From positions 5,246,662 to 5,293,499 of the forward strand of contig BFEA01000014.1 of the NCBI GenBank assembly GCA_003427395.1: DNA of 46,838 nt, in the 5' to 3' direction. A model generated the notes under the pieces. The model searched no databases. It had not been told where the DNA came from and saw only the letters and a program-made list of their open reading frames with translations. Made by a program: the position numbers and the translations under genes. Source of the stretch: Chara braunii. Lineage: Eukaryota > Plantae > Charophyceae. Positions 237 through 44,400 of this stretch are shown here, one piece after another; position 1 is the stretch's first letter; each line of letters starts with the position of its first letter.

Positions 237-2556
237 TTACTTCGTAGAAGTTCGAGGGAGGATGGCCACCTGTGCGTACAAGGGCTCGCCGGTTGGTTCC
301 GGCTCCTTCCACGGTATAATCTCTTCGCCCGTGGCCACCTTGTTTGGCTGGTGCAGACACATCAATCCGTCGGCATTACCGTGCTTTCTAAGTCTTCCTG
401 TGGACGATGTTGAAATCATACTCTTGCAATCGCACAGCTTAACGTCCGATCATACCCGTGTAGTTAGTAAGTCTCATGAGAGCTAGCAGGGGCTCATTGT
501 CCGTGACGAGGAGGAACTTATGTTCGTACAGATACCGATGGAAGTGTTGAATCCCCCAAACAACTGCGTGGCACTTTCCTTGAGGCTCCAAATTGTTCCT
601 TCTCTCGTCCGGTACCATTCGCGAAGCGTACTCAATAACGTGTTTGCGACCGTCGTTCCCCTTCTGGGTCAAAATCGCGGAGACTGCTTCAGGCTGCCAG
701 TCAGTAATGAACTGTTTCTCCAGGTCAGGCCGGATCAAAATAGGTGTCGTGGCCAAAGCCTCTTTAAGAGTGACAAAGGCCCGCTCGCACTCCACATCCG
801 AATTCAGTGGCCGGTCCTTTTGTAGAAGATTCATTAGGGGTCGTGTGATGGCCGCAAATCCTTTGATAAATCGACAATAGTACGAGGCCAGTCCCAAAAA
901 GTTCCGTACTTGTGTCAGTGTTGTTGGTGTGGGGCCCTCCCGAACGACCGCGACTTTCCTCGAATCCGCTCGCAACCCTCCCCGGATCACCATGTACCCT
1001 AGGAACGAAATGTGTGAAAGAAAAAACTCACTCTTCTCCAATGCAATCTTGCAGCCAGCATCCTGCAGCGCCCCGAGCGTCCATTCGATATGTTGTGCAT
1101 GGACGTGGAATGATTCCGAATAGAAGAAGATATCATCCATGTACACAATGACGCAAAAATTGATCATGCCTTGAGTCAGCTTGGTCTTGTTAACGAAATT
1201 CTGGAACGTGACGTTCATCGCTCTCTGGAAAGTGGCACGTGCACTACAAATTCTCATTGGACAACGGATCCACTACCAGGTGCCTTCGAATAACACAAAG
1301 ACCGTCTTCGGCCGATCCTCCTCTTTGACCAGAATGTGGTGAAATCCGTGACGAATATCAAACTTGCTTAAATAATTCACACATGCAATCGCATCCAATA
1401 GGTCACCAATCCGGGGAAGGGGTTACACATCTTTAATCGTGATCTCATTCAATTTCCTGTAATCAATGCAAATGCGAATCGGTCCATTTTTTTTCGGAAC
1501 TAAAACCACAGGAAATGACCATGGTTCGGTCGCTGGTTCAATCCACCCATTAGCCTCAAATTCTCTGATTCTTTGTAGTGGTATTTTACGTTCCACGAGA
1601 GAATATCGGTATGGTTTGCAGTGGATTGGCGGGTGCGCTCCGGTCTTAATTTCATGTTGAATGACTAGAGACAATCCGATGTCCGTATCTGTCACGCTAA
1701 TCGCCCCTTGATATACGGTCAAAATATCCGCAATCAATCGATGAATCTCATTGGGTACGTACTGAGGTAAATGCAACTCGTACGGCTTTCTGTATAGGAT
1801 AACCGCCACGTGTTTCGTGTTTACTCTGTTGCTACTCTCCACAGGGGGAGCAAAAATAAAGGAGTTGTATAACCGCCAGGAGAACACGGTGGCGATCATC
1901 TGAGCGTCTTCTTCCCGGATGACCACGTGTTCTTCTGGGGTCACACCATCGCCGATGTCCTACCAGCACACGGGTTTCTCGACGATCTTGATTCCGAGCT
2001 CATAGGGTGTAGGGTCGTCGCGCTCAGTGGGTTCCAAAGCTTCGCTTTCAGCCCCCAGACGCAATAATCGCACCTCCTTTCCTTAGGATAGCAAGGAACA
2101 AGGTAGCCCTGAAATGTCACAAAATGACTTTTTCTCTCGATATCTCTAAAGAAGTGGGGCGGTGGCTTCGTATAGGGTCCGAGGGGGTTCCATAGAATCG
2201 ATTATCTGGGATACTTGTACGAGTGGTTATCTGAAGATTAGAGCCCAAGTCCGCTGTAGGTTCTTTTTCGTAAGGACAAATGTTTTCATTGTTTTCTGCC
2301 GAATGGGATAGCGGATCGATCGGTGCATCATATCATGGATCACGGGAGTCAAATCATCGTCACTATCGGAGGAGCTGCTAGGCAGCTTGGGTTCTTTTTC
2401 TTTTTGATCGTTTTTGGGGACTGGTTCCTCTCATGTGATCACCCGAAGGGATCCTTTGATTTTGGGGGAGGGTTTTGGATGCAGCGTGGTCCGAAAAGTT
2501 AATCGCATCGGAATGACGTACAACTTTCCACCTGTATTTTGTAGGATAACCAATCG
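237..2556 (-). pseudogene. pol fragment B: protease end, linker, reverse transcriptase, RNase H
   Basis: ORFs 1423-1944, 439-1257 and 237-419 with in-frame stops. YMDDIFFY motif and RNase H motifs are present. Confidence 0.9.
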
Positions 2557-3990
2557 TCCAAATAGACCAGAATATTATCCATGTACACGATAATGCAGAA
2601 GTTAATCATCCCCTGCGTTAATCGGGTCTTGTTAACGAAATTTTGAAATGTTACGTTCATCTCTCTTTGAAAGGTAGCCGGCGCATTGCCGATTCCCATC
2701 GGACAACGAATCCACTGCCAGGTGCCTTCGAACAATACAAAGGCCGTCTTCAGTCGATCCTCCTCTCTAACCAAGATGTGATGAAATTCGTGGCGAATAT
2801 CAAACTTACTAAAATAATTCGCACACCCAATCGCATCCAACAAATCATCAATCCGGGGAAGGGGATACACATCCTTGACCGTGATATCATTCAATTTTCG
2901 GTAATCAATGCAAATGTGAATCGACCCACTCTTTTTCGGGACTAGGACCACGGGAAATGACCAAGGTCCTGTTGCTGGTTCGATCCATCCGTTAGCCTCA
3001 AATTCCCTGATTCTTTGTAGCGCAATTTTTCTTTCTGCGAGAGAATATCGGTATGACTTACAATGGATCGGGGGATGCGTTCCGGTCTGAATCTCGTGTT
3101 GAACCAAAGACAATCCAATATCTGTATCCGTTACGCTAATCGCATTTTGATATTCAGTCAAAATATCCGCAATCAATCGATGGGTTTCGTTAGGTACGTA
3201 CTGAGGCACATGCAGTTCGTACGGTCTTCCGTGTATGGTAACCGCCACGTGTTTCGTATTCGCTTTGTGGTCGTTTTCGGTAGGGGGAGCAGAAATGAAG
3301 GAATTATCCGACCGCCAAGAGAACAATGTGGCGACCATCTGAGCGTCTTCTTCTCGGATAGCCACGTGTTCTTTCGGGGTTACAACGTCACTGATGTCTT
3401 GCCAGGGAACCGACTTTTCGACGATTTTGATCCCGAGCTCGTAGAGTGTAGGGTCATCGCGCTCAGGGGGTTCCAGAGCTTTGCTTTCGCCTCCTAAGCG
3501 TAATAATCGTACCTCCTTATTGGACGACAACAGGGAATGAGGTAGCCCTGTAACGTCGCAAAACGCCTTCTTCTCTCGGTATCTCGAAAGAAGTGGGGTC
3601 GTAGCTTCGTACAGGTTCGAGGGGGTTTCAAGGAGTCGATCATCCGGGATACTTGTACGAGGGGCTCTCCAAAAAGTAAAGCCTGAGTTCGCTGCAGGTC
3701 TTTTTCTGTAAGGACAAATGTTCTGTAAGTCTTCTATTGGATTTGATAGCGAATCAGTTGTCGAGTTATGTCGAGATCAACTTCATTTTCGCTGTCGGAC
3801 TCGCTTGCGGACTCGTATCCCTCATCCCCCTGCTCGACCTTCCGAGTTGGTTGTCCCCAAGTGATTACTCAGAGAGCGACTCCAGGAATCGGAGGAACTT
3901 TCCGAGTTGTGGGCATCATGGTTCGCAAAGTTAAACGGATTGGGATAACATATGGTTTCGCACCTGTCTTTAGTAAAATTATCGATCGTC
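2557..3990 (-). pseudogene. pol fragment A: protease end, linker, RT truncated just after the YMD(D/N) motif
   Basis: ORF 2499-3530 contains RT motifs up to YMDNILVY, then runs into the protease-end sequence of fragment B. Confidence 0.88.
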
Positions 3991-6027
3991 GTTCGAAATC
4001 CAGATTGGCTCGTAGCGCGACGAGTGTCGGTAATCCCAGAAGTACATCATAGGTATTGACATCCAATACCACCACATCCCCTAAAGCATGAACTTTTCCT
4101 AATTGAAAGGCGACATTCATTATTCTAACCACTGCTTTTATCTTTTCTTCATCCGCAGAGACGATATGATCTTTTTCGGTTAGCGTGATCAGATATTTCC
4201 ATCGTCCTGCCTTTTACACTACCCTCAGTGATATGGCCAGAACGGTTGTTCCTGAATCGATGACAGCATTGTACGGGACTCCCAGCACTTCGATGTCGCA
4301 TTCTGCGGATTTCCACGGAATGACTTTCAAGTTAATGCGTAGGAAATGATCATCCTTTTGGATTAGTCCCAACCATATTGGGTATGAGGTGCTGGGCTTT
4401 TCGAGCTTGTCATTGGGAGTTGAGACTTTCCCCTTTGTCGTTGTCGGTTTATTAAGAGCAAACCGCTTTCTGTTTGCCTTGCAATGCTGCAACATGCATT
4501 CGTTAGATTGTTCTGATATAGACAGTAAGTGTCCAATTGGTAATGGAATCCGATGGTCCAAGGCCCGAACAATGTTCAAAATATCGATTTCTCCTGTTAC
4601 GAAGGTAGGACCGTCGGACTCCATTTCATTTGGGGAAGGTCTCCATTTGGTTACTTCTTTTCGCTCGTCCGTCGGTTGGATGGTTTCGATCATTCCCAAC
4701 CCCGGATATCCTAAGGCGATATATTGATCGAGCGGGATAAGTTCCGCTGCTTCCTCGGTAGTGGTTATCGTGCTCCCCCCCCCTTCTATCTCTTCAAGCA
4801 TCGTTCCTATTCTTCCTGGACCGTTGGTCACCGGCGCAGCGGTCACAGGGGCAACCCCGACTCGAGCTTGCATAGGTCGGTGTAGACAGTCCCGACCGAT
4901 ATGGCCCGACTGATAACATGTGTAGTAGACACTCAGATTGGCTGCCATCCTTTCCACTGGTTGAGCGGGGGCAATGCCTTGTGTCACGGGGGCACCTCTA
5001 ACAACAATGGGGCGCATCGATCACATCAAGGATTCCATTCTGGCGTTGAACTCCCGTTGCTCCTTCTTGCTTTCTTGTATTAGGCGGACTAAAGTCCAGG
5101 TCAACTCTAGCATCGCGTTCGGCTCACCGACTCGACTCGTCGTATCTGGAGGGGGTGCAAGAACGGGTACGACAGGTACAGGAGCGGCCATCGCTGGCAT
5201 GGGCAATCCCGTGGTTGCATCTGCCCCCTTTTTTTTTGTTAAATGTGTTCCAAATAGGTGACGGGACCAGAGACAAAACCCATGTTTTCGAATTTATTTT
5301 GTAGTGTGGCGAGCTCGGCCCTTGCTCTAGCCAATTTCGAAGAGTCTCCCTCTCTGGGATAATCTTCCCCTTCTAGGAAACTGGTGGCGAATTTCCGCTC
5401 CATTTCTTCTGCTACAGACATAATCTGCTGCAGAGTATGATTGATCGGGGAGAATTGCTTTTGCAATTTCGCCCTCATGGTCCTGCCATGGGCCCCATCG
5501 ATGAATAGATCCCTCCCGACTTTTTCTCCTCGTTTGGTTTTGACAAACATCCTATAAAATCGGTTTCGGTATTCCGTGACAGATTCGAGTAGCTTTTGCA
5601 CTCGGTCCTTAATCATGAACAAGGCTTGTTTCGGATGAATGTAGTCAAATCGGCTTAGGAAATCTCGTTCAAAAGTTGGGAGATCTCTCCAAATGTAAGT
5701 GTTGAACCAATGATGCGCGTCCCCTCCCAGTCTAGCGGGGATGTTAATTCGAGTTTGATCGTTATCATACTGTTGCGCTCGTAGTGTGGCTAGCCAGGAC
5801 CCGACCAGATGATGTGCAGGGTCAAAAAGATAGAGATCTGGAGGAGCCATGGTCGCGCGAGCTCGCGGGGCCGGGATTGGACCAGGATTCAGATTCAGAT
5901 TCTGATTCGCATTCATATTGGTTGCCTGCCGCCCAGCCGTCCTATTCCGTGTTAATATAGGATCGCGGCGCAGCGAGTTCCGCTGCCTCGGTCGTCCTCT
6001 GTTCGCTAGACCATTCGGTATAATCAC
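3991..6027 (-). pseudogene. gag, zinc knuckle and aspartic protease of the Gypsy-like element
   Basis: Retrotransposon-gag-like LGGDAHHWF...FERDFLSRF...QKLLESVTEYRNRF; CCHC remnant; AVIDSGT; DVLLGLP. Split by frameshifts across ORFs 5239-6027, 5021-5206, 4214-5017 and 3869-4132. Confidence 0.85.
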
Positions 6028-6185
6028 CTTTCGTGTTAATCCGCAAATCTACCACGTGTCGGCTCCGATACCAACCTCACGCCCAACGCGATTTCCGGAT
6101 CGGAGTGGGATGGGGGCCCGAAAGTGTGAAAAAAGGGGTATGCCAAGGATTTTAGGAAAGTGGAGGCGGAGTTTCAGGTCAGAAC

Positions 6186-9225: not shown

Positions 9226-9283
<58 letters not shown>

Positions 9284-9973
9284 NNNNNNNNNNNNNNNNN
9301 NNNNNNNNNNNNNNNNNNNNNNNNNNNNNNNNNNNNNNNNNNNNNNNNNNNNNNNNNNNNNNNNNNNNNNNNNNNNNNNNNNNNNNNNNNNNNNNNNNNN
9401 NNNNNNNNNNNNNNNNNNNNNNNNNNNNNNNNNNNNNNNNNNNNNNNNNNNNNNNNNNNNNNNNNNNNNNNNNNNNNNNNNNNNNNNNNNNNNNNNNNNN
9501 NNNNNNNNNNNNNNNNNNNNNNNNNNNNNNNNNNNNNNNNNNNNNNNNNNNNNNNNNNNNNNNNNNNNNNNNNNNNNNNNNNNNNNNNNNNNNNNNNNNN
9601 NNNNNNNNNNNNNNNNNNNNNNNNNNNNNNNNNNNNNNNNNNNNNNNNNNNNNNNNNNNNNNNNNNNNNNNNNNNNNNNNNNNNNNNNNNNNNNNNNNNN
9701 NNNNNNNNNNNNNNNNNNNNNNNNNNNNNNNNNNNNNNNNNNNNNNNNNNNNNNNNNNNNNNNNNNNNNNNNNNNNNNNNNNNNNNNNNNNNNNNNNNNN
9801 NNNNNNNNNNNNNNNNNNNNNNNNNNNNNNNNNNNNNNNNNNNNNNNNNNNNNNNNNNNNNNNNNNNNNNNNNNNNNNNNNNNNNNNNNNNNNNNNNNNN
9901 NNNNNNNNNNNNNNNNNNNNNNNNNNNNNNNNNNNNNNNNNNNNNNNNNNNNNNNNNNNNNNNNNNNNNNNNN
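9226..9973. other. (CT)n microsatellite followed by assembly gap (N 9284-9973)
   Basis: Directly visible. Confidence 0.98.
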
Positions 9974-11594
9974 TTAAATAGACTGTACGCACCCGGTCTC
10001 CCACGGCGACGTGATAGTCCAGCGGAGTTCCCTTTCCCTTCCTCCCTCCCTCCCTCCCTCCCTCCCTCTCTCACCCACCCATGCAGATAAGCAGTATCCA
10101 TCTCTCGGCAATCAACGGGGAAAGACTCGGTCAGCTAAGCCGCCGTGGTTAAATGAGAAGTGCTCGAACATGATGACAGCTACGGACTTACATCTCCCCG
10201 AGCATACCTGACTCCTGAGCATAGTATACGATCTTAACAAGCACGCCCTTATAGAATTAACGGTAGCCTTATTACTCGTCGGGACTCCCGCAATCTTTGA
10301 ATTTTCTCATCTCGTCTTGCCCTTCTTCTCGCTATCCTGTTTTTTTTTTTTTTTTTTTTTTTTGTTTTTTTTTTTTTTTTCACAACTTTGGACCATTTGT
10401 CGATCAGCGAGCGAGTGTCATCCTTGGCACGGGGAAATGCTAATCTTCCGACGTTTAGCGTTCCGAATGCCACCAATATCCCGAAGTAAGGCTGTTACGG
10501 TTTTTCATCTCCAAAGGCTGTCGCTTTTTCATTTATTTCTCAAGGCTATCACTTTTTTTTATTAATCTCTCACCCTGTGCGACTTGAGTCCGTCGTTTTG
10601 AATGCTGCCCATCACACTCTACATAGTAGCACGATTTGTCGAAGTAAGGCTAGGCTTAACCTTCGGTCCTTCTTTTCGAGGTCGCACACTGCTTCCTCAC
10701 TACCTGTGTCATTAACCACGGTGTATACTTTGGGAAATTGGGTTATCTCTGCTCTCCATCACGTCCATACACTTGGGCAGTACTTGGCAAAGGAGGGGGG
10801 GCGGGCAGGGGGGGAGGGAGAGGAGAGTGGAGGGCAGGGGAGGGGAAGGGAGGGGAGGTAAGGGGAGGGGAGGGGAGTGAGAGTGAAGGGAAGAGGGCTG
10901 TCTAAAACTACCGGCATCGGTGTTTTCTCGCTGTTTGTGCCATCACCTACTAGCATATCGATGTATAGTTCTCGTGTGTATCTGATTCAGTACCTCTGCC
11001 CATCACATAACTAGACTGGAACGTAGTCCTCATAACTTTTTCTACTTTTTCTTTGATCGGATCCAAAACGGAATCGAACTCGCGATCTCTGCTTCACGGC
11101 CGACTGCCCCCTTTTTTATTTATTTTATTATTATTCTTTTGTATGATTTTGATCACTGTGCTGGCCGAGTGGAGAGAGGGTAGAGCGACATCACCGTAGA
11201 AGTCATTCCACCCCGGGCCCTCACTACCCGGGGTGGGAGGAGGGGGGAGGGGAGAGTAAACGACTTCAAACTTCATTAAAAAAGGAGTGTTTAAAAAAAA
11301 TAGTTGTGATCACATTGTGCGGTCAATAATCCTATTGTGAGGATGACATCCTAGTTGTCATTCCAGGGGCCCTTTCCAAGCAGACTGAATGTATACTGGA
11401 ACTACGACTTGTTTCGATGCATCTGACCTACTTTTCCGACCAGATTGGCTTTCGAACAGTATCACAACCCCTCTACCTCATCGTTTTCATGCCAGGGTGA
11501 AGGCAGGTCGCTTTCTTTGGCATGACAAGCCTCGAACTCTCGACTTGTGCTCGATCCAGCGTTCTATCACTAACTGACGGAATCCGATGAAGGG

Positions 11595-11845
11595 GGATTC
11601 GAACACGTGTCCTTGAAAAGCTTGAGGATTTGAACACGTGTCCTTGAAAAGCTTGAGGATTCGAACACGTGTCCTTGAAAAGCTTGAGGNAAGCTTGAGG
11701 ATTCGAACACGTGTCCTTGAAAAGCTTGAGGATTTGAACACGTGTCCTTGAAAAGCTTGAGGATTTGAACACGTGTCCTTGAAAACCTTGAGGATTTGAA
11801 CACGTGTCCTTCATTCGAACACGTGTCGGACTCCTTGAAAAGCTT
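11595..11845 (-). repeat. Tandem array of about 7-8 x 31-bp units containing a Pol III B-box (GTTCRAATCC on minus), possibly the amplified head of a tRNA-derived SINE
   Basis: Unit GAACACGTGTCCTTGAAAAGCTTGAGGATT(C/T) at 11601, 11632, 11663 and onward. One N at 11690. Confidence 0.85.
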
Positions 11846-12204
11846 GGTTTGCTAGTTGCCTGACATAGTATGTCTTTATCATTTCAATTCTTTTTGTCTT
11901 CAGAATCTTTGCTCCTTTTTTTTTTTTTTTTTTTTTTTCCCTCTTTGTTTTGTTCATTGCAATTCCAAAACAATGTAGAGATAGATAGATATAGCTCTAA
12001 CAATACGCGATCACGGGTGTCCTCCATTAGCCCCCAGATCTTCACTTTAGCACAGCTTCCGCCTTCACCGGTATAGGGCTGATAAGCCTCACGAATGTAT
12101 TCAGGGTATGAATTTTTGCACGTGGTTTTTGTGTTGGCGGGAACACGTTAGATAGGTCAGCCGATGATGGGAGCCTCCTTGATGAGGGGTGCTGATCAAC
12201 CCGT

Positions 12205-13010
12205 ATCGACGATCCGATCACTGCCAGGGGACCAGTACCTTTCCCGCCAAATTAGTAGTAATTTGGCGCGGACCGAAGTGAACCTCCCTGACGACGGCTG
12301 CGAGTCGTCCTGTCTCGCCGGTCCGGTCGCTGCCAGGTTCCCAGCGCCCTTCCCGCCAATTTTAGTTCCCGCGCACGGAACTGACCCTCCCTGACGAGGG
12401 GCGCCGATCCGACTGTCTAATCCGTCCGATCGCTGCCAGGTGTCCAATGCCCTTCCCGCCAATTTTATTTCCCGCGCACGGGACGAGTGGGGTTCCGATC
12501 AGGCTGTCCCATCCCTCCGATCGCTGCCAGGTGTCCAATGCCCTTCCCGCCAATTTTCTTTCCCGCGCACGGGACTGACCCTCGCTGACGAGGGGTGCAG
12601 ATCAGGCTGTCCCATCCCTCCGATCGCTGCCAGGTGTCCAGTACCTTTCCCGCCAATTTTATTTCCCACGCACGGGACGAGGGGTTCGGATCAGGCTGTC
12701 CCATCCCTCCGATCGATCTCTGCCAGGTGTCTAATGCCCTTCCCGCCAATTTTTTCCCCCGCGCACGGGACTGACCCTCGCTGACGAGGGGTGCGGATCA
12801 GGCTGTCCCATCCCTCCGTTTGCTGCCAGGTGTCCAGTGCCTTTTCCCGCCAATTTTATTTCCCGCGCACGGGACTGATCCTCGGTGACGAGGGATGCGG
12901 ATCTGGCTGTCTCGTCCGTCCGATCGCTGCCAGGTGGCCAGGGCCCTTCCCGCCAATTTGATTTCCCGCGCACGGAACTGAGCCTCCGTGATGAGGGGTG
13001 CGGACGAGCC
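12205..13010 (+). repeat. GC-rich minisatellite, 8 units of about 90-108 bp, each with TTCCCGCCAA and usually TTCCCGCGC (E2F-type motifs)
   Basis: CTGCCAGG anchors near 12221, 12329, 12434, 12524, 12627, 12720, 12823 and 12927. Confidence 0.92.
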
Positions 13011-13262
13011 CTCCGATTGGCGCTTGGTAACCAGTGACCTCCGCGCCATTTCCGATTTCCCGCTCAGAGTATTCAGTCCTTGTCCTTCCCGCCGACCCTA
13101 TTCTCCTCGCGCGGGACTCCATTCGCGCGCGCACCCGTAGCCTCAGCTTTAACCCCGGTGCCCATCTGTCTGTAGTTCCCCGGACTGAGACATATATCAA
13201 CCGATCGATTGATAGTGACACTCCTTCCAGCCCCTCCCGCCCACCGCTCCCCACCCCTCCCT

Positions 13263-13284
13263 CTGTGTGTGTGTGTCTGTGTGT

Positions 13285-13372
<88 letters not shown>

Positions 13373-13373
13373 N

Positions 13374-13425
<52 letters not shown>
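13263..13425 (+). repeat. Compound (GT)n(GA)n microsatellite upstream of the large gene
   Basis: Directly visible. Confidence 0.97.
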
Positions 13426-13426
<1 letters not shown>

Positions 13427-13695
13427 AAACGGGAGTGAAGAGGGGAGGAGGAGAACGACTGGGGACTTCGTTTTTTCATTCGAAAGAGCAGTTAAGATCT
13501 CGCTCGACATAAGAACAGAAACGAATAAAGGATGTCGCTTGACATCGAAGGAAGGCGTACGACAGAACGTTCTTGGATTTAGCAAGCAGCTGAGAGAGCT
13601 CACCGTTGTGATTGTGACTGGGTGGGGATTAATTACTGTACTAGGTTCTTCGAAAGACTCTCACGACCAGGCAATTACCACATACTCTCTCTGAG

Positions 13696-16600
13696 ATGAT
13701 GAGGGAAGAGCAGGTCGTGCACGATCCGTGCATCGCCAATACAAAGAAGATCATGGAGGATCGAGCTATGACGTCCCCTCCTCTCGAAAGTGACAGCATG
13801 AGAGTGATTAGGATGGCTGCTCTCGGGCGGTCGGCTAACGTGGGCGACTTATACGATATCCGGACAGAGGCTTTCTGTACAGCGAGGCAGGGATCCCGTC
13901 CGCGGCTGAGTTTGTTTGATCATCACATTCTCCCGCCAACCGTGTCTAAATCTCAGCCGTCCATTCAAGTGCATTACACGATCGATGATGAAGAGGAAGA
14001 TGACTGTCACAGCTTGTCGAAGAGGTGCCGCATCTTACACGTCGATCCTCAACTGCAGCTGAGCATCCTCGGGGGTCTGATCACACCGGAGGGACCGGGG
14101 GAGTACCTTGTCTATCGGGAACCCAGCGTCCCGGCGGGCGACACCGACAGAGGGGCCCGGGCATCCTTCTTCTGCCAGGTCACTACTGTCGAGACTCATC
14201 TAGACTTCAATCAACAGCTCCCTAACAAGGAGGCGATCCACGTGGCAGCTTCGAGGACCATCAACGCAATCGACTCCGGCCTTCATCAGGCTACCCATCT
14301 CGTAAGCGGGGTGGTTCTTGGCGGGACCGTGGTGGCCTTGATTACCAGCCGACCGATGCAGCAGCAGCAGCAGCAGCAGCAGGAGCAGCAGCAATCACCT
14401 GCAGAGTGTCAAGTCGACGACGGGAACAAGCGAGGGTCGGAGCTTGTGGTCCACAAGGCAGCGACCAAGGCCCGCTTGCAGAGACGTCTGATGACACTCA
14501 AGGCATCCTTACTTCCCACTGCTACCGGTAGTAGCTTAGACACCGGCGAGTCCAAAGCCGGTGGTAGTGATTCCCCCGTCGGCTCATCACAGGCTGAAAT
14601 CGCTGGGGATGATGCTATTAATAGCCCTGCTGCGAGTGACCCTGCTGCTATTAATAGCACTGCTGCGAGTGATGGAGATCGCGGAGGTAGGCGGAATCGC
14701 AGCAGCAGCAGCAGCGCAATAGTCCCCGACGATTCCCGCGGTAATGGCGCTCCTCATAGCCCGACGGCGACGGTTAGAAGCGACGGCTGGCGAAAGCGCA
14801 TCAGTAGAAATCTTAGGACCGGCGGCAGCAGCGGCAGCAGCGGCAGCAGCAGAAAAAGCGGTACTACCACTAGTAGTAGTAGTAGTACTAGAAGAAGTAC
14901 TGCTACTGCTGGTAACGATAGTAGTAGCAGTGCTAGCAGTGGTAGTTCTTCTTCTTGTTGTTGTTGTTGGAAAGACGAAGGAGAGAAGAAGATTAGGAGG
15001 AGGAGGAGGAGTAGGTGTACAGACTCAGGAGAGGAGACCGTTACCACGTATGGTAGTTGGGGCCGTAGTGGTGAGGGAGAGGAGACCGACTCCATTTCCG
15101 TGAGGATCTTCACGGACTTGACCTGGGAAAGGCCATTCGGAAACGCATCGACCAGTCTGACCGAGCTCAAGAGGATTGTCGATTGCTGCACACACCTGGG
15201 TGATGAGCACATACGTCTGCTTGCCCCCGTTGTTATCTGCTTATGTCCGATCTCAGACTTTTTCCGTTGGCATCAACAAGTTTGCGGCTATCCTGTCGCC
15301 AGAGCGGCGTCAGCGCTGCGCGCTTTGCCGTCACACACGCTTCCGGACGAGCACGCCATCTCCAAAACTCGCCGACTGTTTGAAGAGCTCCAAGAGCTAA
15401 GAGACGATTTCGAGGCTTTGCTCCGCGACATGGGCGTTGCCATTCGAGCTCACGGCGAGATTGCAGTTCTGAGGATGGAGATGGAGGTGTTATACCTCCA
15501 GCGAAGCAGGATAGAGATCACGACACAGAGACTTCGACAGGAAGTGGCCGAGGCTACGGTGAAGATTCGTTGCTCCCCTCCTCCTCCTCCTCCTCCTCCT
15601 CCTCCCTCTCCTGCTCCTCCTCCTCCCTCTCCTCCCTCTCCTCCTCCTCTTCCCTCTCCTCCCTCTCCTCCTCCTCCTCCTCCTCCTCCTTCTCCTCCAG
15701 GTTCGTCGGGGGAAGAGGAGGGAGGGGGGTCCGCGGCTTTGACGCGAGTAGTGGACAGGTTCCGCCAAAGCTCCGGCCTGTTCGCTGCGCGCCAGAGTGT
15801 TGCCAGAGAGTCGGCTAGACTCAATGAGATAGTGGCGACGCTGACGTCCCTGCGCAGCGGAGGTGTGAGGTTCCGCACCGGAGAGGACGATGTCAGTGCC
15901 ATCGGCGCGATTGTGTCCGAGCACAAGCAGGACATGGTCTACATTATGGTCCATTTCTCCGCTGCGGGTCGTGGAGAATCCTGGCAAAAGAACCTGAAGC
16001 TGCTCAAATGCCTCATGGATATCGAGAGGGGGAGGGGGCTTCAAGAAGCCCCCGACGAAACCATCGCTGCTACATCCGTTGGCTCTGTTGCTGCTCGTCG
16101 TCCTCCTCGCTGTTTCTTCTACGTACTGCAGCTGCAGGTTCTTGGTTCAGACCCCTGCTCCTCCGGCAACAGCTCCTCCGTTGTAGATGGAACGTGCTCA
16201 CCACACTCGATGCCAAACACGACGACAGCTGGCAGCATGACGTGGAAGAGACATGACGGCCGCACGATGGCTATGGCGGGGGCAGTCGACGAGCTTCCTC
16301 ACTCCCCTAGTGGCCATGGCAGTAGCCATCGTTCTCCTCCGCCTCCTCCTCCTCCTCCTCCACGGGGCAGCAATGGAGTCACAATGGGTGAAAGCCAAGG
16401 TTTTGATCATCTCCCTGACACGAGGACAAGGTTCTATCAGAATGGCTGCCTTATCCTCGACGACGTGAGACGTCAAATGGACAGAGTGGCACAGCTGTGC
16501 ATACTGAGAAGCAGCCAGATGGAACTTGGTGTGCCTCTGGAGACGAGTTACAGCGAGCAACGTCCACGTGTAGCAGCACCTCTGCGAGCACCTTGCCCGG

Positions 16601-18684
16601 GCTCTGTGTCTGGCAAATGCCCTTCTCTGGAGAGGGACTGGCATTGCGAGAGGTGTGCATGCCACGTGGAGTACGGTGGGGACGGCTACGTGTACTGCGA
16701 CTGCGGGCGGGCACCGTTATCTTCGCTGAGCTACATGTGCCGAGCCGCCAAACACGAGGGGGGCAATACCTATATAGGTTACGACGACCCGGTGCAGCAG
16801 CTGGCGGAATATCTGGGGAGGTTGCCGGCCGGCAGGGAGATAAAAAATGTGCTGCTGCTCGGGGAGAGCGGGGTAGGCAAGTCCACTTTCATCAACGCCT
16901 TCGCCAATTACCTTAGGCACAAAGACATGGAGGACGCCAAGGACGATCTGCTTGCCCTGATCCCTTCGCACTTCACGGTGTGTCCTGCGGGCAACTACAG
17001 CGGCGTGAGGGTGACGGTGGGCGACCTTCTGGGAGACGATAACGAGGAGGCCGGTGTCGGGAAGTCCGCTACCCAGACCTGCAAGGCCTACGTTTTCAGC
17101 TATGCCTACCATGGGGAGGAGTACAAGGTGCGTCTCATCGACACTCCTGGGATAGGGGACACTCGGGGCTTCCACCAGGACCGGCACAATTTGGAGAATG
17201 TCCTCAAGTTTCTGGGTAATCACCGGCAGGTTCATGGCATCTGCATCCTGATGAAGCCCAACTTGGCAAGACTCAATGTGATGTTCCGCTTCTGCGTACT
17301 GGAACTCTTGTCCCACCTGCACAAGAGTGCCAAGGACAACCTCACCTTCGTCTTCACCAACGCCCGCTCCACCTTCTATCGTCCTGGGGACACCATGCCG
17401 GTGCTGCAGGAGATGGCCAAGAAGATCAGTGACTCCCCTCCTTTCGTTGAAATCGAGCTCAGCGACAACACCATGTACTTGGTGGATAGCGAGTCGTTTC
17501 GCTTCCTGGCCGCTGCCAACAAAGGGGTGAAGTTCAGTGATGAACAGACGGGCGACTTCGCAAAGAGCTGGAGGGTGTCTGTGAGGGAGTGCAGGCGGCT
17601 CATGGACCACATCTTGAGTCTATCTCCACACAATGTGGAGGACACCATTTCTCTGAACGAGGCCCGCCGTCACATGCTCCAACTGATGCGGCCCCTTGGA
17701 GAAATCAGCCGCCTTATAGGGGTCAATAACAAGCTCATAGAAGAGAAAAAGGAAGAGTTGGGGAAGGTAGAGGAGGAGCAGAAGTCGCAGGGGCATGTGG
17801 GGGACGTGGAGGAAGAGCGGGTGGATCAGCCCCGCTGCGTTTGCATCTCCCCCTCGTGTAGGGATGCCGTAATTGTGGAGGGGGTCACGAAGTACCACTA
17901 CAGGACAGTGTGTCACGACCCATGCAGCGACTCCACCGGGGCTCTGAACACCATCAACGACCCGAGCCTCCGGTCTTGCTCTGCCATGGGCAAGAAAGGC
18001 AAGTGCACCCATTGTGGCTGCGACTGGTCCTCTCACATGCGCGTGGACAGGGAGACGAATATCAAGATGGTTCTCAGACAGCAGCCTGCTGCAAGAAAGT
18101 CGAGATCTTTATCAGATGGCTGGCTGGAAGCGGCGAAGACAGAGGTGCAAGTGAAGCTAGCGCACTTGACGGCCAAGGTCAGCCAGCTGGAGCAGGAACA
18201 GGCAGCTGTGTCCGCCACCTGCACCAGGTTCGCCTTGGTCCAGAAATGGAACGCCTTAACGCCACATAACGACGCCATTGTGGAATATTTAGACCATCTG
18301 GTGGAGGAGCTGAGGAGTGCTGACTCAGCAGGATCGGATTCTGAAGGAGGCGATAGAGAGCTGCTGAGGAGGCTGATCGAGTTGAAGCAAGAGTACGAGC
18401 ACGAGGCAAGGCTGCTCTCGGAGGCATCAGAGACCTCCTGCGAGAGCCTGGAGGAGGCGCAGGCGATGCTCTCACCAACAAGGACGAAGGATATGATGCA
18501 GACATTGTTTCATCTACCAATAACAGGCTGGAAGATAAAACAAGCTGTGGAGGGATCTGAATCTAGTGGTCGTGAAACAGAGGTAAAATACCAGGAAGTG
18601 CTAGTCAGGACGGCCAAGCAGAGGGCCTGGGCGAATGTCAAATATGCCCCTCATCTTTCCAATCCGCCACAAAGACTCCGCTAG
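13696..18684 (+). CDS. 1662-aa protein: stonustoxin-like MACPF/CDC N-terminal region, Cys/His cluster, GIMAP/septin-like P-loop GTPase, Cys-rich domain and coiled coils
   Basis: Uninterrupted 4989-bp ORF. G1 GESGVGKS (16861-16884), G2-like SATQ, G3 DTPG (17140-17151), G4-like FTNAR. SNTX-like motifs AALGRSANVGDLYDIR, LQLSILGGLITPEGPGEYL, ATHLVSGVVLGG, ISVRIFTD, PVVICLCPI. Cys clusters near 16594-16755 and 17836-18040. AATAAA near 18959. The exact start Met is uncertain. Confidence 0.9.
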   Translation: MMREEQVVHDPCIANTKKIMEDRAMTSPPLESDSMRVIRMAALGRSANVGDLYDIRTEAFCTARQGSRPRLSLFDHHILPPTVSKSQPSIQVHYTIDDEEEDDCHSLSKRCRILHVDPQLQLSILGGLITPEGPGEYLVYREPSVPAGDTDRGARASFFCQVTTVETHLDFNQQLPNKEAIHVAASRTINAIDSGLHQATHLVSGVVLGGTVVALITSRPMQQQQQQQQEQQQSPAECQVDDGNKRGSELVVHKAATKARLQRRLMTLKASLLPTATGSSLDTGESKAGGSDSPVGSSQAEIAGDDAINSPAASDPAAINSTAASDGDRGGRRNRSSSSSAIVPDDSRGNGAPHSPTATVRSDGWRKRISRNLRTGGSSGSSGSSRKSGTTTSSSSSTRRSTATAGNDSSSSASSGSSSSCCCCWKDEGEKKIRRRRRSRCTDSGEETVTTYGSWGRSGEGEETDSISVRIFTDLTWERPFGNASTSLTELKRIVDCCTHLGDEHIRLLAPVVICLCPISDFFRWHQQVCGYPVARAASALRALPSHTLPDEHAISKTRRLFEELQELRDDFEALLRDMGVAIRAHGEIAVLRMEMEVLYLQRSRIEITTQRLRQEVAEATVKIRCSPPPPPPPPPPSPAPPPPSPPSPPPLPSPPSPPPPPPPPSPPGSSGEEEGGGSAALTRVVDRFRQSSGLFAARQSVARESARLNEIVATLTSLRSGGVRFRTGEDDVSAIGAIVSEHKQDMVYIMVHFSAAGRGESWQKNLKLLKCLMDIERGRGLQEAPDETIAATSVGSVAARRPPRCFFYVLQLQVLGSDPCSSGNSSSVVDGTCSPHSMPNTTTAGSMTWKRHDGRTMAMAGAVDELPHSPSGHGSSHRSPPPPPPPPPRGSNGVTMGESQGFDHLPDTRTRFYQNGCLILDDVRRQMDRVAQLCILRSSQMELGVPLETSYSEQRPRVAAPLRAPCPGSVSGKCPSLERDWHCERCACHVEYGGDGYVYCDCGRAPLSSLSYMCRAAKHEGGNTYIGYDDPVQQLAEYLGRLPAGREIKNVLLLGESGVGKSTFINAFANYLRHKDMEDAKDDLLALIPSHFTVCPAGNYSGVRVTVGDLLGDDNEEAGVGKSATQTCKAYVFSYAYHGEEYKVRLIDTPGIGDTRGFHQDRHNLENVLKFLGNHRQVHGICILMKPNLARLNVMFRFCVLELLSHLHKSAKDNLTFVFTNARSTFYRPGDTMPVLQEMAKKISDSPPFVEIELSDNTMYLVDSESFRFLAAANKGVKFSDEQTGDFAKSWRVSVRECRRLMDHILSLSPHNVEDTISLNEARRHMLQLMRPLGEISRLIGVNNKLIEEKKEELGKVEEEQKSQGHVGDVEEERVDQPRCVCISPSCRDAVIVEGVTKYHYRTVCHDPCSDSTGALNTINDPSLRSCSAMGKKGKCTHCGCDWSSHMRVDRETNIKMVLRQQPAARKSRSLSDGWLEAAKTEVQVKLAHLTAKVSQLEQEQAAVSATCTRFALVQKWNALTPHNDAIVEYLDHLVEELRSADSAGSDSEGGDRELLRRLIELKQEYEHEARLLSEASETSCESLEEAQAMLSPTRTKDMMQTLFHLPITGWKIKQAVEGSESSGRETEVKYQEVLVRTAKQRAWANVKYAPHLSNPPQRLR

Positions 18685-19229
18685 TACCAGTTCACCAGAA
18701 CCTCTGAAGGAGGGCTGGGAAATCCACCAAGGACATATTACTCACGAAGTCGCCGAACGTGTAATGCAACCATGAATTCGATAGATTTGTGGTGCTTGAG
18801 GGGTGGGGGAGAAGAGTACAGGAGTGTTGTACCCAGCACATGTGGCTGAATGGTGCCACACATGCGTATTTGTTATTAAACAGTTCAAATCCTGATCGAA
18901 CTGGATGGACACAATAATACTAGGGCATATTAGCCCCTTTCTGAAAGAACAAACAACAAATAAAAGAGCGTTGACTCCTATGTGAGTAAGGTTAGGGCGT
19001 TAGGGCTTCACTGCTCCTATGTTCACGCTTAGAAAGCACAAACCTGGCCTCTTATAGAACAGCCAAGTTCGTGCTTTCCTAGCATGAACTTAGCAACTGT
19101 TACAGTGCAGCCTGCCTCTAAGACAAGGGTCCACCTTCCCCTACCTGTTCCCTTTGGGTTCCCTTTCCGAGTCTGGACATTTATACACAGTAGCTGAGGG
19201 AACTATAGGTTAATGTTATTTTTGTTGTT

Positions 19230-19400
19230 CTTACAGTTACCTTTCCTGAGGAATGGACATGTAGTTCAGCCTACTAGTGGAGGTGGTATGAGCACACTCC
19301 ACTAGTAGACGTAACACCGGTTGGCCCAGTCTATTGGCGGGGGGCTGCACCTGCTGAAGAACCAGCTGAACCAACGAACAGATCCTCAGTTAATTAGAGC
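19230..19400 (-). mobile_element. LINE-type 3'-end module of a degenerate or non-autonomous retroposon
   Basis: CAGCAGGTGCAGCCCCCCGCCAATAGA motif on the minus strand plus a 12-bp stem (CTACTAGTGGAG/CTCCACTAGTAG, about 19271-19309), homologous to the other LINE 3' ends here. Confidence 0.6.
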
Positions 19401-19964
19401 TCTGGTGTTGCAACCATGAGGTTGTGGGTTTGATTGTGATCCGCCCTCAGGCTCGCCTATGCATGGTCAGTTGGGGTTTGTTTGACACCCCGCGTGCTTG
19501 CCCCCCAGCCTAGCGCAGCGTACATATATACAAGCTATTATGGACACAGGGATAGACAGGGGGCCGAGGGATGGAATGGGTTCTGGTGGCGGGGATTGGT
19601 TACTGAATGAAGTAATCTGGCATTTTGGGGGCAAGGAGCCAGTTGGGACGAGAGAATGGGGATCGTAGGTTGGAGTTGGGTTATTGGCGAAGATGAGTTA
19701 ACGAACGACATAACCTGGCCTTTGGGAGTGGGGGCTGGGTGGGATGATGGAAGGGGAATTGTACGGGAGGGCTATACTGCTTCACATACATATGATACTA
19801 CAGGCATGGGATATTCAGGAAGCAGGGATGGGGCAGGGTCTAGTAGTGGTAGCAGTAAACCAAGTAGCCTGGCCCTCGTTTAACAAGGGGGGTAGGCAGG
19901 ATGACAGAAAGGTGATTGTAGGTGGAGTTGGGGTAAGTGGCAACTTGAAGGATCAGTTGCGTGC

Positions 19965-20585
19965 TGAACCTGACCCTGAGCGGGGGGGCTGGCTGGGATC
20001 AAAGAAGGGGGGCTTTAGGTGGGGAAGCCCACTCCTAAGGCATGGATGGGTATGAAAAGAACACAAGGACGAGTCTAGACGACAATTGTTCTGACACCAG
20101 TACACCACAAATCGGCCCGTGGGTGTCAGCACGAAACCCGCACCACTTCGGAGGCCGCCGACTTTTTCTTCAATGGCGGGCCTGGCCGCTTGGCGCCTCC
20201 TTTGCTTGTGGTGACAAAAGTTTTTTCTGCAAGGCTGGGGCCATGTGCTAGCGGTTTAAACCACCAGTATAACCTGACCCTGAGAGGAGGGGCTGGCTGG
20301 GATGAAAGAAGGGGGGCTTTAGGTGGGGAAGCCCACTCCTAAGGGATGGATGGGTATGAAAACGGAACAAGGACGACAATTGTTCTTACCTTGAACCACC
20401 AGTACACCTGGGCCTGGAGGCATCTTACGGCGCGCTGAGCTTTTCCGAACCTCCAGCAGTGCACATCTTTTCTTTTTTGGCTGGTGCCGCTAGCCATTGT
20501 GGTCCGGTAGGCGGAGCCATTGCGACAGTGCTGTGGCGACGAGCTGCTTATTCTGCAGGGCTGGGGCCATGTTCTGGTAGTTTAA
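19965..20585. repeat. Imperfect tandem duplication of about 310 bp with a well conserved 140-bp block
   Basis: AACCTGACCCTGAG...CCAGTACACC near 19967-20107 and 20271-20408. GGCTGGGGCCATGT near 20233 and 20559. Confidence 0.85.
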
Positions 20586-21493
20586 GGGGGAATGGGATGA
20601 TTGACTATAAAGAGAGAAAGACAGTCAAGGAATCAGTTAATGACAGAGATTGGGGGGTTCTAGTTCATGAAAGAGGTTGGCTGGTTCAATTTGATGACAG
20701 AGACATGAATGATTGCAGTGGACAGAGACTGTACTAGTCTTCCCAATACAGGTACAACCAAACCACATCAATAACAATAACAACAATAATATCAACAGAA
20801 CAGCTGTGCTAGGGGTGTGCTCTCGACTCGAGTAGCTTAGGGGCTGTCACAGGTTTGAACTTGGTCTGGGGCATTAGACACTGCCTGTGGTAGCCTGGGT
20901 AAAACGTTCAGTCTGTTCAGATATATATAGAGGGACCTGGATCATACTGAATCTTGGGGGCATCTAGGGTCTATTCACGGAGCCTGTGGAGAAAACTTAA
21001 GGTTCACGCCTAGCGTTCAAAGTTCCCATATGACAGTCTGAGAGCTTGTTTGAAGATGCTTCAACAAGGGATGAATTATCCTGCTTAGTGCTGGTGCCGG
21101 CGACCACTGTCTTCTCAGGTCATCCCACCAAGATTTAGTAGAGGGGTGATTGCCCTGAGCAGTAGACACTGAGGGAGGATGGAGGGACTGGGGAGTGCAT
21201 CAGAGAGAATTGACGGACGCGGGTTGGGTGGGATGAGACCCAATTGTGAAAAATCAAATCACAAGGCTCGTCTCTTCTGACATTTCTCTCTGGTACATGA
21301 TGCCATTGGAATCTGGAACTAGAGGAAGGATTTGCAGGCCCCTACAGGCTACAGAGGTGCATGCAGAATGCTCTCCTATATCTGGGCTGGCGTCTGGTTT
21401 GAGAGTGCTGTGGAATCTGCGGATGATGTATCATATCTGACCCTCCCCGACCCTGCAAAGCTAATTCAGAAGAGGAGAGAGGGGTACGTCACC

Positions 21494-41454: not shown

Positions 41455-44400
41455 GGGGGAGATTGCTCATTCGCGTGAAGTGCAGAAGTGCTGGTGCACT
41501 TGTACACTATTGTGAGGGGCGAAGCGCTGAGCCAGGGAGGTTGTTACGTGCCCAGTTGGGCGATGTACATAGAAACCGAGGATCCGCAATGTGATAAAAA
41601 GGACTGAATGGACAATGCAGTGCAAGTAGAATCTCAACAAGGAATGTGCATTCTGATACATACAAATGGTGCTGAATAGCGCAGTGGAAGACTTAGATAC
41701 AAGTCCTGACCTGACCGGGACTGACCTCGTTCATGTAGTATAAGATAGCGAAGCAGAATGTGTGAAGGAGCCTGGCACTGTACACAGGAAGCGCCAGGTC
41801 CAGACATACACAGACGAAGAGTAGGGGATCAGACGAAGAGGAGGGGGAGAGATGGGAATGTCGCCAACACCAAGTCTTTGTCACAAGCCCCAAATAATCC
41901 CTCGTTGCAATGTCCGAAGCAAAAAAAAAGTCGAGTCTGGATCCAATGTCACCAAGCTCTCTCTCACTTCTCTCATAGTCTGCTGATGCAGTGAAGTCAG
42001 ATAATGAGAGGGTGAGAGGGAGATGGTGGACTGAGAAGAGGAAGAAGAAGAACTCTCTCTCTCTGTTACGAGCCACGTACTAACCTGTGAAGTTGGCGCT
42101 GTGCTGCAGTTACCTCGAAGACGAAGCTGGAGCAAACGGCGCTGCAGGTAAGTACCTCTGGCCTCCGCCCGATCTCTCTCTCTCTCTAGTGCTATCCTAG
42201 CTATGGCGCCTAGCGCTGGAGACTACAGCTACCTACTGCGCCCAGCGCTGAAGACTAAGGCTAACGCTACTACTACTCCTGCAGCGCTCCCTCCAGAGTG
42301 CTGCTGCCGAATCCTGAAGACTACTGCCTCCTACCTCCCCGTGAAGTGCATGGGAAGTCCCTATGTACTACCTCGGCCTGCCTCCTGACTGCCTGAAGGG
42401 CGAGCCAGGCCGAGGAGGCTGCTCTTGCCAATGCAGAAGTGTGCCAGGGGCTGGAGCTGCAGCCTCTGCTGAGGCTGTCATGGGAACAGGCTAAGAATAG
42501 CCTGTTCCTGAAACCCTGGTTCGGTGCCTGAGTTTCAGGGCCGGTCGTTCTGATGAACGACCGAAAATGGCCCTTCCTTTCAGGCTAAAAACTAGTAAAA
42601 AGGCTATTGTCATTTTCAGTCTGAAACGACACAGGGACTGTAGGCCCCTGTTTTCAGGCATTCGGGCTGAACAGTCACGGGGCCTGTAAGATTCTGACTT
42701 TTTTTTTTTTTTTAACAGGTCCTCATGGTCCTGGCTCCATATCCATTCTGGGGAGCGTCAGTCCGGTTCCTTTCCACCGGCAAGTCGAGAATGAAATACA
42801 TAGTGAACACCCTCACGCTTCCTTCCGTCTGGCCGAAGGAACCCTGACCAGCATTGATTGCTCCTTTTTCAGGAGGATTGACTGTCAGCTTGCCCTACCT
42901 CTTTTCCTCTCAGAAACTATACTCTCTGCGCCAGATGCTACGTATAAAGCCAGAAAAGGGGAGAGATGTCTAGCTGTTGAGATTATAATCTCAGTTAGCT
43001 CTTCACTGGGACCCTGTTCTCGTGTTGTGCCACTTCTTCCACGCCATTCTGTTGTCCACCACAGTGGCGATCTTTCCCTGCAGAAGCCAGTTTCTTATGA
43101 ATTTACGTCTCTTTGTGGCTATCATTTCGGGTCTGCCTTTCGTAGTCATGGTCACTTCTCGCCATCTGGCTCGAATCTCTGTTTCTGCCATTCTCAGCAG
43201 TAGAACCCACGTTTCCTCTCTTGGTATCTCAATTCCTTCGATCGTCTTGGAGCATCTTCTCTTCCAGATTACCCAAAGCGCCAGCTTTCTGAGTAGATGG
43301 AACCAGACTTCCTTGCCGCCTTTGAGATTGTTAGTGTCGTTAGATAGGAGCAGGATGTAGAGGGGGGTTGTGGCNGGGGGGGGTGATGGGAAGAGAGAGG
43401 TCCAAAGGTNGNGCACTTTNTTCCAGATCCATGTTGCTTCCGTGTAGTATAAAAGGCAGTGGAGTGTGTCTTCCACGNCGTTGCCTGTGCACAGACTGCA
43501 TATATCANTGNTGTCGGGGTCTGTGTGTTTTCTTCTCTTGTGGAGCCACTGATTGGTTGGCAGAGAGACGTGTGCTAAGAGCCATTGCATGCTTCGGATC
43601 CTAGCCGGTCTAATGGTTAGGAATTTAGTCCATGGGATGGATATGGGGGCCGAGGGGTCCAGACTCAGTGTTTCCTTCCATTTGCTTTCGAGTCTGGGAT
43701 CAGGGTCTGTGGTCTGTAGGCCTAGATCATAGCCGAATTTGACATCGTACTCAGCTATTGTTCTCGTCCTCCCTGAGTTGCCTTGTTTCCATATCCATTC
43801 TTTTGGGTCAAATTCTAGCTCTGAGATGCAAAGATCCGGTCGGAAAATTTTCCATGGTTTGGACTTCGATACCCTCACTTTTCTCAGTCGAAAAGTCTCC
43901 AGCGTCTCGCTCCGCGGGTCGATGTTCTGGGCTTCTATTTCATTTGTGCTGTGTTTCGCTATCGGGTAGAAAAAAAAACTTGGATACATAGCCGGTTGGG
44001 CTTGTCCTCGCGACAAATCTGTATACTCTGGTAGGCTGGGCTTGGGAGACTGGTATGCCCCAATCCCCGGATTTCCAGGAGAATTCCTCTCTTAGGAGGG
44101 GAAGCCATTGTGTTGGGATACTATTCTGGATCAGCGTTAAGTTCTCAGCGAGGGCGTGGCAGCCCTTTAATGTGTTGCGTGATCCGTTGCCCACCGTCCT
44201 TGGTCTTCTACCCAGATGTGTTTGACCTGCCACACACCTTTTTCTACCAAGGAAAGCCATCTGCGGTCCCGTGAACGCAAAGTCCAGGTCGTTCCACTGG
44301 GGTCAGTGATCCAGGGGATTATACCGAGGCCCCCTTCCTGAGGCCTCCTATTGATGTGGTTCCATGCGACCCTGTTGATGCAGGTGGTCCTATTAGGATC

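Follow-up and report, generated by a model that had tools for sequence, protein, structure and literature searches.

The window analysed here is a stretch of 46,838 nucleotides from the charophyte alga Chara braunii (contig BFEA01000014.1, positions 5,246,662 to 5,293,499 of the forward strand). Its main feature is a single long open reading frame (ORF), whose protein appears to join a pore-forming half of the stonustoxin type to a zinc-flanked GTPase. Sequence comparison and predicted structures suggest that compact members of the same family are GTP-gated pores or cell-death effectors, and that the ORF copy is a pore-impaired switch or partner subunit; we see the chances of this reading as evenly balanced. 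From sequence and models, the domains follow the order MACPF, helical, thioredoxin-like, zinc cluster, GTPase, DUF8206 and coiled coil, and coordinates are collected in Table 1. The database gene model of the protein starts at Met20. A hydropathy scan of the ORF protein showed no signal peptide or clear transmembrane helix, and because a signal peptide is absent, the protein is probably cytosolic.

A preliminary description, made from the DNA letters alone, had matched the N-terminal motifs to stonustoxin's MACPF/cholesterol-dependent cytolysin (CDC) domain, and the segment beginning VYIMVHF to the position of the thioredoxin-like domain in that toxin family. Direct comparison gives little: phmmer relates the ORF protein to stonustoxin beta at E=0.015 only, and Pfam MACPF_SNTX has no match on the ORF protein at E<=1, so that the curated cut-off is not reached. 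That cut-off is passed by three of the eight Chara paralogues and six of the seven non-Chara proteins scanned. A profile of 94 family members matches stonustoxin alpha (residues 4-505, E=6e-53) and beta (residues 4-500, E=3e-50), and a profile built from non-Chara relatives matches aa 35-232 of the ORF protein at 4e-21. The AlphaFold model of aa 34-1045 has a mean predicted local distance difference test score (pLDDT) of 71 and a predicted template modelling score (pTM) of 0.69. Its top Foldseek match is stonustoxin itself (4WVM, E 3e-11), which aligns over chain residues 4-506 with VIA Z 15.6, 392 aligned residues and a root-mean-square deviation (rmsd) of 5.1; CDCs rank behind it, at Z 9-10. 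The expected fold was thus recovered, and the VYIMVHF...RFYQNG segment likewise models as a thioredoxin fold (aa 723-931, Z ~8, rmsd ~3.2 A, ~86 aligned). The likeness to stonustoxin is beyond chance, but it comes into view only through profiles and folds.

Stonustoxin-like proteins are described as having four domains (PMC10566576), and by sequence and model the ORF protein has three of them. It shares with stonustoxin and neoverrucotoxin (SNTX-like; 4WVM, PF24674, PF21109) the order MACPF/CDC, helical (FAT-like) and thioredoxin-like. Where stonustoxin has a C-terminal PRYSPRY domain, the ORF protein instead has the zinc cluster, GTPase, DUF8206 and coiled coil; PRY/SPRY has no Pfam match on it, so we do not class it as a stonustoxin proper. 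Its hairpin regions are also longer than those of stonustoxin and bear prolines, there is no venom context, and no alpha/beta partner has been identified.

In the GTPase, the G1 and G3 motifs are complete, as the preliminary description had reported, and G2, G4-like and G5-like motifs are present too. Among 94 aligned relatives, 91-94 share the core G1-G5 residues and 92 share Arg1192. The two Cys/His clusters seen earlier are real by the same comparison: 93 of the 94 relatives keep all 8 ligands of the first, and in the second, 8 of its 10 Cys/His residues persist in 90-93. The proposed AIG1- or septin-like identity holds at the level of fold and of the TRAFAC G1-G5 layout, and not at that of Pfam, since the ORF protein reaches neither cut-off (AIG1, 14.6 bits against 27; Septin, 15.6 against 26.2). 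In a full-length model of the rotifer relative P0042 (pLDDT 83, pTM 0.46), the best structural matches of the G domain are Toc34 (E 5e-6) and GIMAP7 (E 6e-6). The common G1-G5 layout and these fold matches place the domain with the paraseptin GTPases (GIMAP/AIG1, Toc34/Toc33), and a conserved arginine in a predicted head-to-head dimer may be a further likeness. Unlike GIMAP and Toc34, it has two flanking Cys/His clusters, a fused MACPF module and no membrane anchor. The PADLOC models of anti-phage systems gave, for the ORF protein and three relatives, a match in the P-loop region only (LeoBC, about 55-90 of 601 positions).

The ORF GTPase is predicted to homodimerise. Two copies of its G domain with GTP and Mg gave a dimer score of 0.80, against 0.05 for the best of three controls (pLDDT 81), and the prediction runs agree in at least 96% of contacts. 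In tests on eukaryotic proteins, 17 of 29 solved homodimers and none of 30 single chains attained the mark used for this score. Only one of seven homodimers without an older solved relative did so, and the result may therefore reflect likeness to solved Toc34/GIMAP dimers. The predicted interface is made up of the P-loop, switch I, Arg1192, G4 and G5. By motif position, Arg1192 is the putative counterpart of the GIMAP/Toc arginine finger. The predicted interface corresponds to the G interface described for septins, GIMAPs and Toc34, and arginine fingers and G dimers are likewise described for the paraseptin families (PMC5084822, PMC10996617).

MACPF pores require two helical clusters that refold into amphipathic beta-hairpins (PMC4318580). 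To judge the lengths of these clusters (CH1 and CH2), we thinned 162 non-Chara proteins at 50% identity, which left 69 representatives for reference. In 57 of the 69, CH1 has a length of exactly 45 aa, and CH2 measures 37-55 aa in 62 of them, with a maximum of 64; the median of CH2 among 87 non-Chara relatives is 45 aa. Sizes held this tightly point to probable selection for a barrel. The hairpin regions combine matched lengths with an amphipathic pattern in members from rotifers and Glomeromycota and in those of the bacterial type, and by sequence these compact relatives look equipped with the matched hairpins of a pore former.

The ORF protein departs from this pattern. Its CH1 is 58 aa long and its CH2 249 aa, about five times the family length, and its first hairpin carries three prolines, all away from the Gly-Gly turn. 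With these changes beside a well-kept GTPase, the ORF copy is probably a poor pore, and its hairpins look unmatched, with some uncertainty in the edges of the insertion. The protein is about 450 low-complexity residues longer than its database relatives, and the largest block lies inside the second hairpin region. This insertion, a feature absent from the preliminary description, is disordered in the AlphaFold model (pLDDT<50 over aa 282-461). We also considered whether its Ser-rich sequence could be an unspliced intron and rejected this, as there are no joints and one contig crosses 14553-15560 colinearly (if that run is RNA).

Other Chara copies show similar changes. CH2 ranges from 10 to 249 aa across 11 Chara copies, and a hairpin-1 proline is found in all 11, compared with none of the 8 full-length members of the bacterial-type clade. 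The proline excess in Chara is specific to hairpin 1, since it is 4.5-fold there and close to one in the other N-terminal parts (1.1 in the rest of MACPF, 0.8 in the helical domain, 1.0 in the thioredoxin-like domain). Of the 11 Chara copies, 8 have a G1-to-G5 distance of 202-208 aa and the remaining three give 216, 238 and one pattern mismatch; the median of 85 others is 203. Because the length of the G domain is kept in most copies, the relaxation of the sequence is concentrated in the N-terminal half, where it includes non-hairpin loops (the poly-Pro and thioredoxin insertions).

In the mechanism that we propose, nucleotide-bound G domains would pair head to head through the predicted interface, as in GIMAPs, Toc34 and septins. 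The GTPase-DUF8206-coiled-coil module may fill the targeting and trigger role of PRYSPRY and cluster MACPF domains on a membrane. In the family at large, the two matched 45-residue helical clusters would then refold to beta-hairpins and perforate the membrane of the cell itself or of an invader. In the ORF copy, ring or dimer formation may survive while barrel insertion probably fails; it could scaffold, tune or dampen its paralogues. Gasdermins and HET-S/HET-s, pore effectors of regulated cell death in fungi and bacteria, resemble the proposed system in having a cytosolic pore module with built-in control, patchy and expanded families, and a proline-inactivated partner allele, HET-s H33P being the precedent for a pore partner killed by a proline (PMC10197012). 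They differ in having other folds and in being controlled by proteolysis or amyloid, not by a GTPase. The GTP-gated pore of the preliminary description thus survives as a fair hypothesis for the family, with its switch step backed by the predicted G dimer, and its pore step is doubtful in the ORF copy on account of the hairpins.

Alternatively, the ORF copy may itself be a working GTP-gated pore, with the insertion forming a loop next to the membrane-spanning strands that is either tolerated or cleavable. Around the insertion, confidence in the model of the MACPF core is high, and hairpin 1 is 54% identical to the glomeromycotan copies (nematode copies 52%). Pleurotolysin B also carries a hairpin proline, though at the turn (PMC4318580). 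The size of CH2, well beyond the maximum among the 69 relatives, the enlarged CH1 and the position of the three prolines speak against a working pore, as does the identity of CH2 to the glomeromycotan copies, which is only 11%. We regard it as unlikely.

Several observations nevertheless weigh against our own reading, and some of them favour a working pore. Hairpin 1 of the ORF protein retains its hydrophobic pattern. At least one hairpin-1 proline occurs in 30 of the 69 non-redundant relatives, two or more in nine and three in one, and the Chara copies are kin, so that 11 of 11 does not amount to 11 separate events. The limits of the insertion are uncertain, and its place may be just beyond the membrane-spanning strands. 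On the lipid face of hairpin 2, Chara copies are not richer in polar residues (0.64) than the others (0.52). For the switch, no MACPF-GTPase contact is predicted in the P0042 model, at the pTM given above; the predicted interface shows no higher conservation than the rest of the G domain (0.57 against 0.61); and it is not obvious how a G dimer with two-fold symmetry would fit a MACPF ring that runs in one direction. Finally, the proposed immune role draws on analogy and on the behaviour of the gene family.

The family search scored 7,986 proteins and yielded 256, with lengths of 914-2,909 aa; names were taken from the top 120. The gene is not a singleton: at least 10 further Chara braunii paralogues are among the matches listed, for a total of at least 11 copies. 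The same fusion, annotated as hypothetical proteins, occurs in Glomeromycota, Mortierellales, Ascomycota, rotifers, nematodes, tardigrades, sea urchin and a few bacteria. Fungal and invertebrate fusions had been mentioned in the preliminary description and do exist; the full-length bacterial ones come in addition to these. Database members with MACPF_SNTX, DUF7656, GTPase and DUF8206 are full-length fusions with the same domain order, 32-50% identical to the ORF protein in the C-terminal half. The MACPF part is present in 106 of 123 family proteins compared.

By sequence, the GTPase module is mobile. Tandem double GTPase-DUF8206 arrangements are found in P0009, P0012, P0013 and P0124 (beetle, coral, millipede and one unnamed), and the module is fused to a kinase and FYVE in the glomeromycotan P0060 and to ankyrin repeats in P0175. 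The gene model of the Chara paralogue P0033 has retrotransposon SH3 and chromo domains attached at its N-terminus, through either a model error or a genuine fusion. Of 248 family proteins, 69 lack the N-terminal module entirely, and the GTPase-DUF8206-coiled-coil module alone matches 1,162 clusters at E<=1e-30. A family that acts mainly in membrane remodelling or scaffolding, as a GTPase of the dynamin, IRG or GIMAP kind, with MACPF as an accessory oligomerisation or membrane-binding module, would agree with how often this module stands alone or in tandem. It would also agree with a C-terminal module far better conserved than the MACPF half, and with weak matches of the P0042 model to bacterial dynamin-like folds. 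The exact matched hairpins and clean amphipathic patterns of the bacterial-type, rotifer and glomeromycotan members are needed by a beta-barrel and not by a scaffold, and we find this explanation rather improbable.

In a quick tree of 78 rows, the ORF protein is sister to paralogue P0005 inside a Chara clade of nine members. The deep branches of the tree are weak and it has no real root, so a donor cannot be named. Gene transfer into Chara from fungi or cyanobacteria was considered and is unsupported, as the tree groups the Chara copies with sequences from beetle and millipede and with unnamed ones. Outside Chara, no member from the green lineage is named among the matches listed, many of which are unnamed, so absence does not follow. 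When the N-terminus of a compact Chara paralogue was used in a word-based search, only two proteins came up, both from Chara, and this is uninformative on land plants. The 'Streptophyta' clusters of the Atlas for aa 30-240 probably represent ordinary MACPFs of plants, and we set them aside.

A check of expression, proposed in the preliminary description, weakly supports transcription of the ORF. The 3' stretch or part of it is carried by 19 sequencing runs from 7 studies, at least half of its words being present in 10. None of the 19 is recorded as RNA; they fit RNA, given their small assemblies (50-200 million letters) and two same-species runs without the stretch. Contigs of three runs start upstream of the ATG, at 13447, 13553 and 13636, and extend without joints over most of the 5' half, and a contig of 3,412 bases takes in 16373 to beyond 19600; no single contig spans the whole gene. 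Among about 42 million records of three recorded oligo-dT runs, there are 6 read pairs, 4 in the ORF and 2 downstream, all oriented as expected for the sense transcript in usual stranded libraries. In the one oligo-dT run examined for the 5' half, that half has no real raw-read cover. A GC-rich tandem repeat of ~680 bp (period ~103, 6.8 copies) followed by (TG)32(GA)50 microsatellites occupies 12322-13425, directly upstream of the probable transcript start.

The scarcity of reads bears on another explanation, that the ORF is a young redundant paralogue drifting to loss, in which microsatellite insertions pile up without function. It is one of many copies with numerous repeat-derived insertions, its branch in the tree is fairly long (0.45), and one run's contigs show three differences, all amino-acid-changing, which are too few to judge selection. 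Against such decay, the 5-kb frame is open among broken retroelements, with every insertion in frame. As the preliminary description had it, this is the only long intact ORF in the window: it encodes 1,662 aa, the next-longest stop-to-stop frame is 425 aa (among 125 frames of at least 100 aa listed), and 6 of 13 other frames tested match retroelement reverse transcriptase (RT), RNase H, gag or zf-RVT families. The GTPase and zinc ligands are intact, and the identity to the nearest paralogue is only ~40%, which implies that the divergence is old. We therefore consider decay very doubtful.

Table 1. Features of the ORF and its transcript in the window (nucleotide positions count from the first letter of the window)
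Feature	Position	Strand	Remarks
Probable transcript, approximate span of contigs from probable RNA runs	13447..19743	+	5' and 3' untranslated parts included; 3' end extrapolated
Single uninterrupted ORF	13696..18684	+	1,662 aa; no internal stop
Stonustoxin-type MACPF/CDC domain, aa 35-518	13798..15249	+	Four-stranded core and two helical clusters; AlphaFold, Foldseek, family profile
Predicted transmembrane hairpin 1 core, aa 114-138	14035..14109	+	Hydrophobic alternation mostly retained; prolines at aa 118, 131, 134
Helical cluster 2 / predicted hairpin 2 region, aa 218-466	14347..15093	+	249 aa; poly-Gln run and disordered insertion inside
Disordered insertion, Ser/Gly/Arg-rich	about 14509-15081	+	~190 aa; within hairpin 2 region
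Stonustoxin-type helical (FAT-like) bundle, aa 519-721	15250..15858	+	Pfam Stonustoxin_helical found in relatives; AlphaFold model
Poly-Pro microsatellite insertion	15573-15698	+	Breaks the helical bundle
Thioredoxin-like domain, aa 722-931	15859..16488	+	DUF7656 in relatives; low-complexity insertions inside
First Cys/His cluster, 7 Cys and 1 His	16573..16770	+	Likely two zinc sites; putative zinc binding
Paraseptin-type (Toc34/GIMAP-like) GTPase	16834..17670	+	G1-G5 intact; Arg1192 conserved, in predicted dimer interface
GTPase motifs			G1 GESGVGKS aa 1056; G2 Thr (SATQ) aa 1124; G3 DTPG aa 1149; G4-like FTNAR aa 1220; G5-like DSE aa 1264
Long helices around DUF8206, then C-terminal coiled coil and helical bundle	17671..18681	+	PF26633 match on ORF protein; model of a relative
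Cys/His-rich DUF8206 domain	about 17803-18075	+	PF26633

Elsewhere in the window, broken retroelement fragments of the long terminal repeat (LTR) type (gag, RT, RNase H) and the non-LTR type (RT, zf-RVT) lie on the minus strand at 439-6048 and 43003-45542. An assembly gap (N run) bordered by a CT microsatellite is found at approximately 9280-9975, and a 31-bp tandem array with HindIII-like sites and a CACGTG core at 11595-11811. There were no matches to Rfam families in 11000-21000.

The bacterial members occur in two kinds of setting. One cluster of full-length fusions has a member from an uncultured Draconibacterium, and its representative lies on a 5.27-Mb contig. At locus L008 (8440-12048), a full-length MACPF-GTPase fusion with clean hairpins stands alone on its strand, in a contig that is 90% coding. 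A clamp/loader cluster of DNA polymerase III lies to one side of it and a methyltransferase gene to the other, dnaN, dnaX, PolB, holA and DUF5895 being among the neighbours, and from this gene context the locus looks like cargo of a cyanobacterial plasmid-like replication cluster or element. The second kind is a GTPase-DUF8206 gene without MACPF, seen at L001 (2530-6845), L009 (357-5159), L010 (5037-13055) and L022 (7355-11830). Each of these four copies has two upstream genes, one small and one of ~500 aa without a Pfam match; the small one in L010 has a weak beta-flower match. An NB-ARC- or NACHT-type gene is nearby in L001 (read by eye), L010 and L022. Cyanobacterial-type copies are also found beside TPR genes, and the TPR protein downstream in L010 shares the short N-terminal domain of the GTPase. 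This recurring MACPF-less unit near NB-ARC/NACHT genes is a candidate for an undescribed cyanobacterial conflict system. Family members were found in 1 of 401 cyanobacterial genomes in a phylum-level sample and 2 of 401 in an order-level sample, none with the MACPF half. None of 151 pattern matches on viral contigs was a family relative, and a plasmid collection gave no family match.

To our knowledge, no MACPF/CDC pore under the control of a GTPase on the same chain has been characterised, and our searches found none either. A description of the MACPF-GTPase fusion was likewise not found in the literature searched, largely outside subscription papers; the preliminary description knew of no functional study and of no report from the green lineage. 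The component domains are known and their combination is visible in Pfam annotations; a functional description of any member was not found in the papers searched. Three mentions come nearest. Fungal proteins are described that combine a neoverrucotoxin-like N-terminus with MORN repeats (PMC4859500). Stonustoxin-like genes are described as transferred between fishes and linked to defence (PMC12107551), and AIG-type GTPases as effectors in bacterial conflict systems, in a source whose text contains no mention of MACPF (PMC7159879). The terms MACPF, perforin and GTPase do not occur in the review PMC10197012.

A broader proposal, which we put forward tentatively and think somewhat more apt to fail than to hold, is that bacteria, fungi, invertebrates and a charophyte alga share an undescribed family of GTP-gated MACPF immune pores, each built as a single chain. 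The zinc-flanked paraseptin GTPase would sense an invader, dimerise and fire the stonustoxin-type pore; fish stonustoxins would be the same module with PRYSPRY; and expansion in Chara would have produced pore-dead regulators or decoys such as the ORF copy. If true, one protein would join two arms of innate immunity, immune GTPases and perforin-like pores, and the stonefish-toxin module would gain a cellular context. Mycorrhizal fungi, rotifers, nematodes, tardigrades and an alga near the land plants would also gain a candidate effector of cell death, and the family's single-gene bacterial members would make the idea cheap to test in laboratory strains. The main value of the Chara copy would be as a natural comparison, in which an intact switch is paired with altered hairpins.

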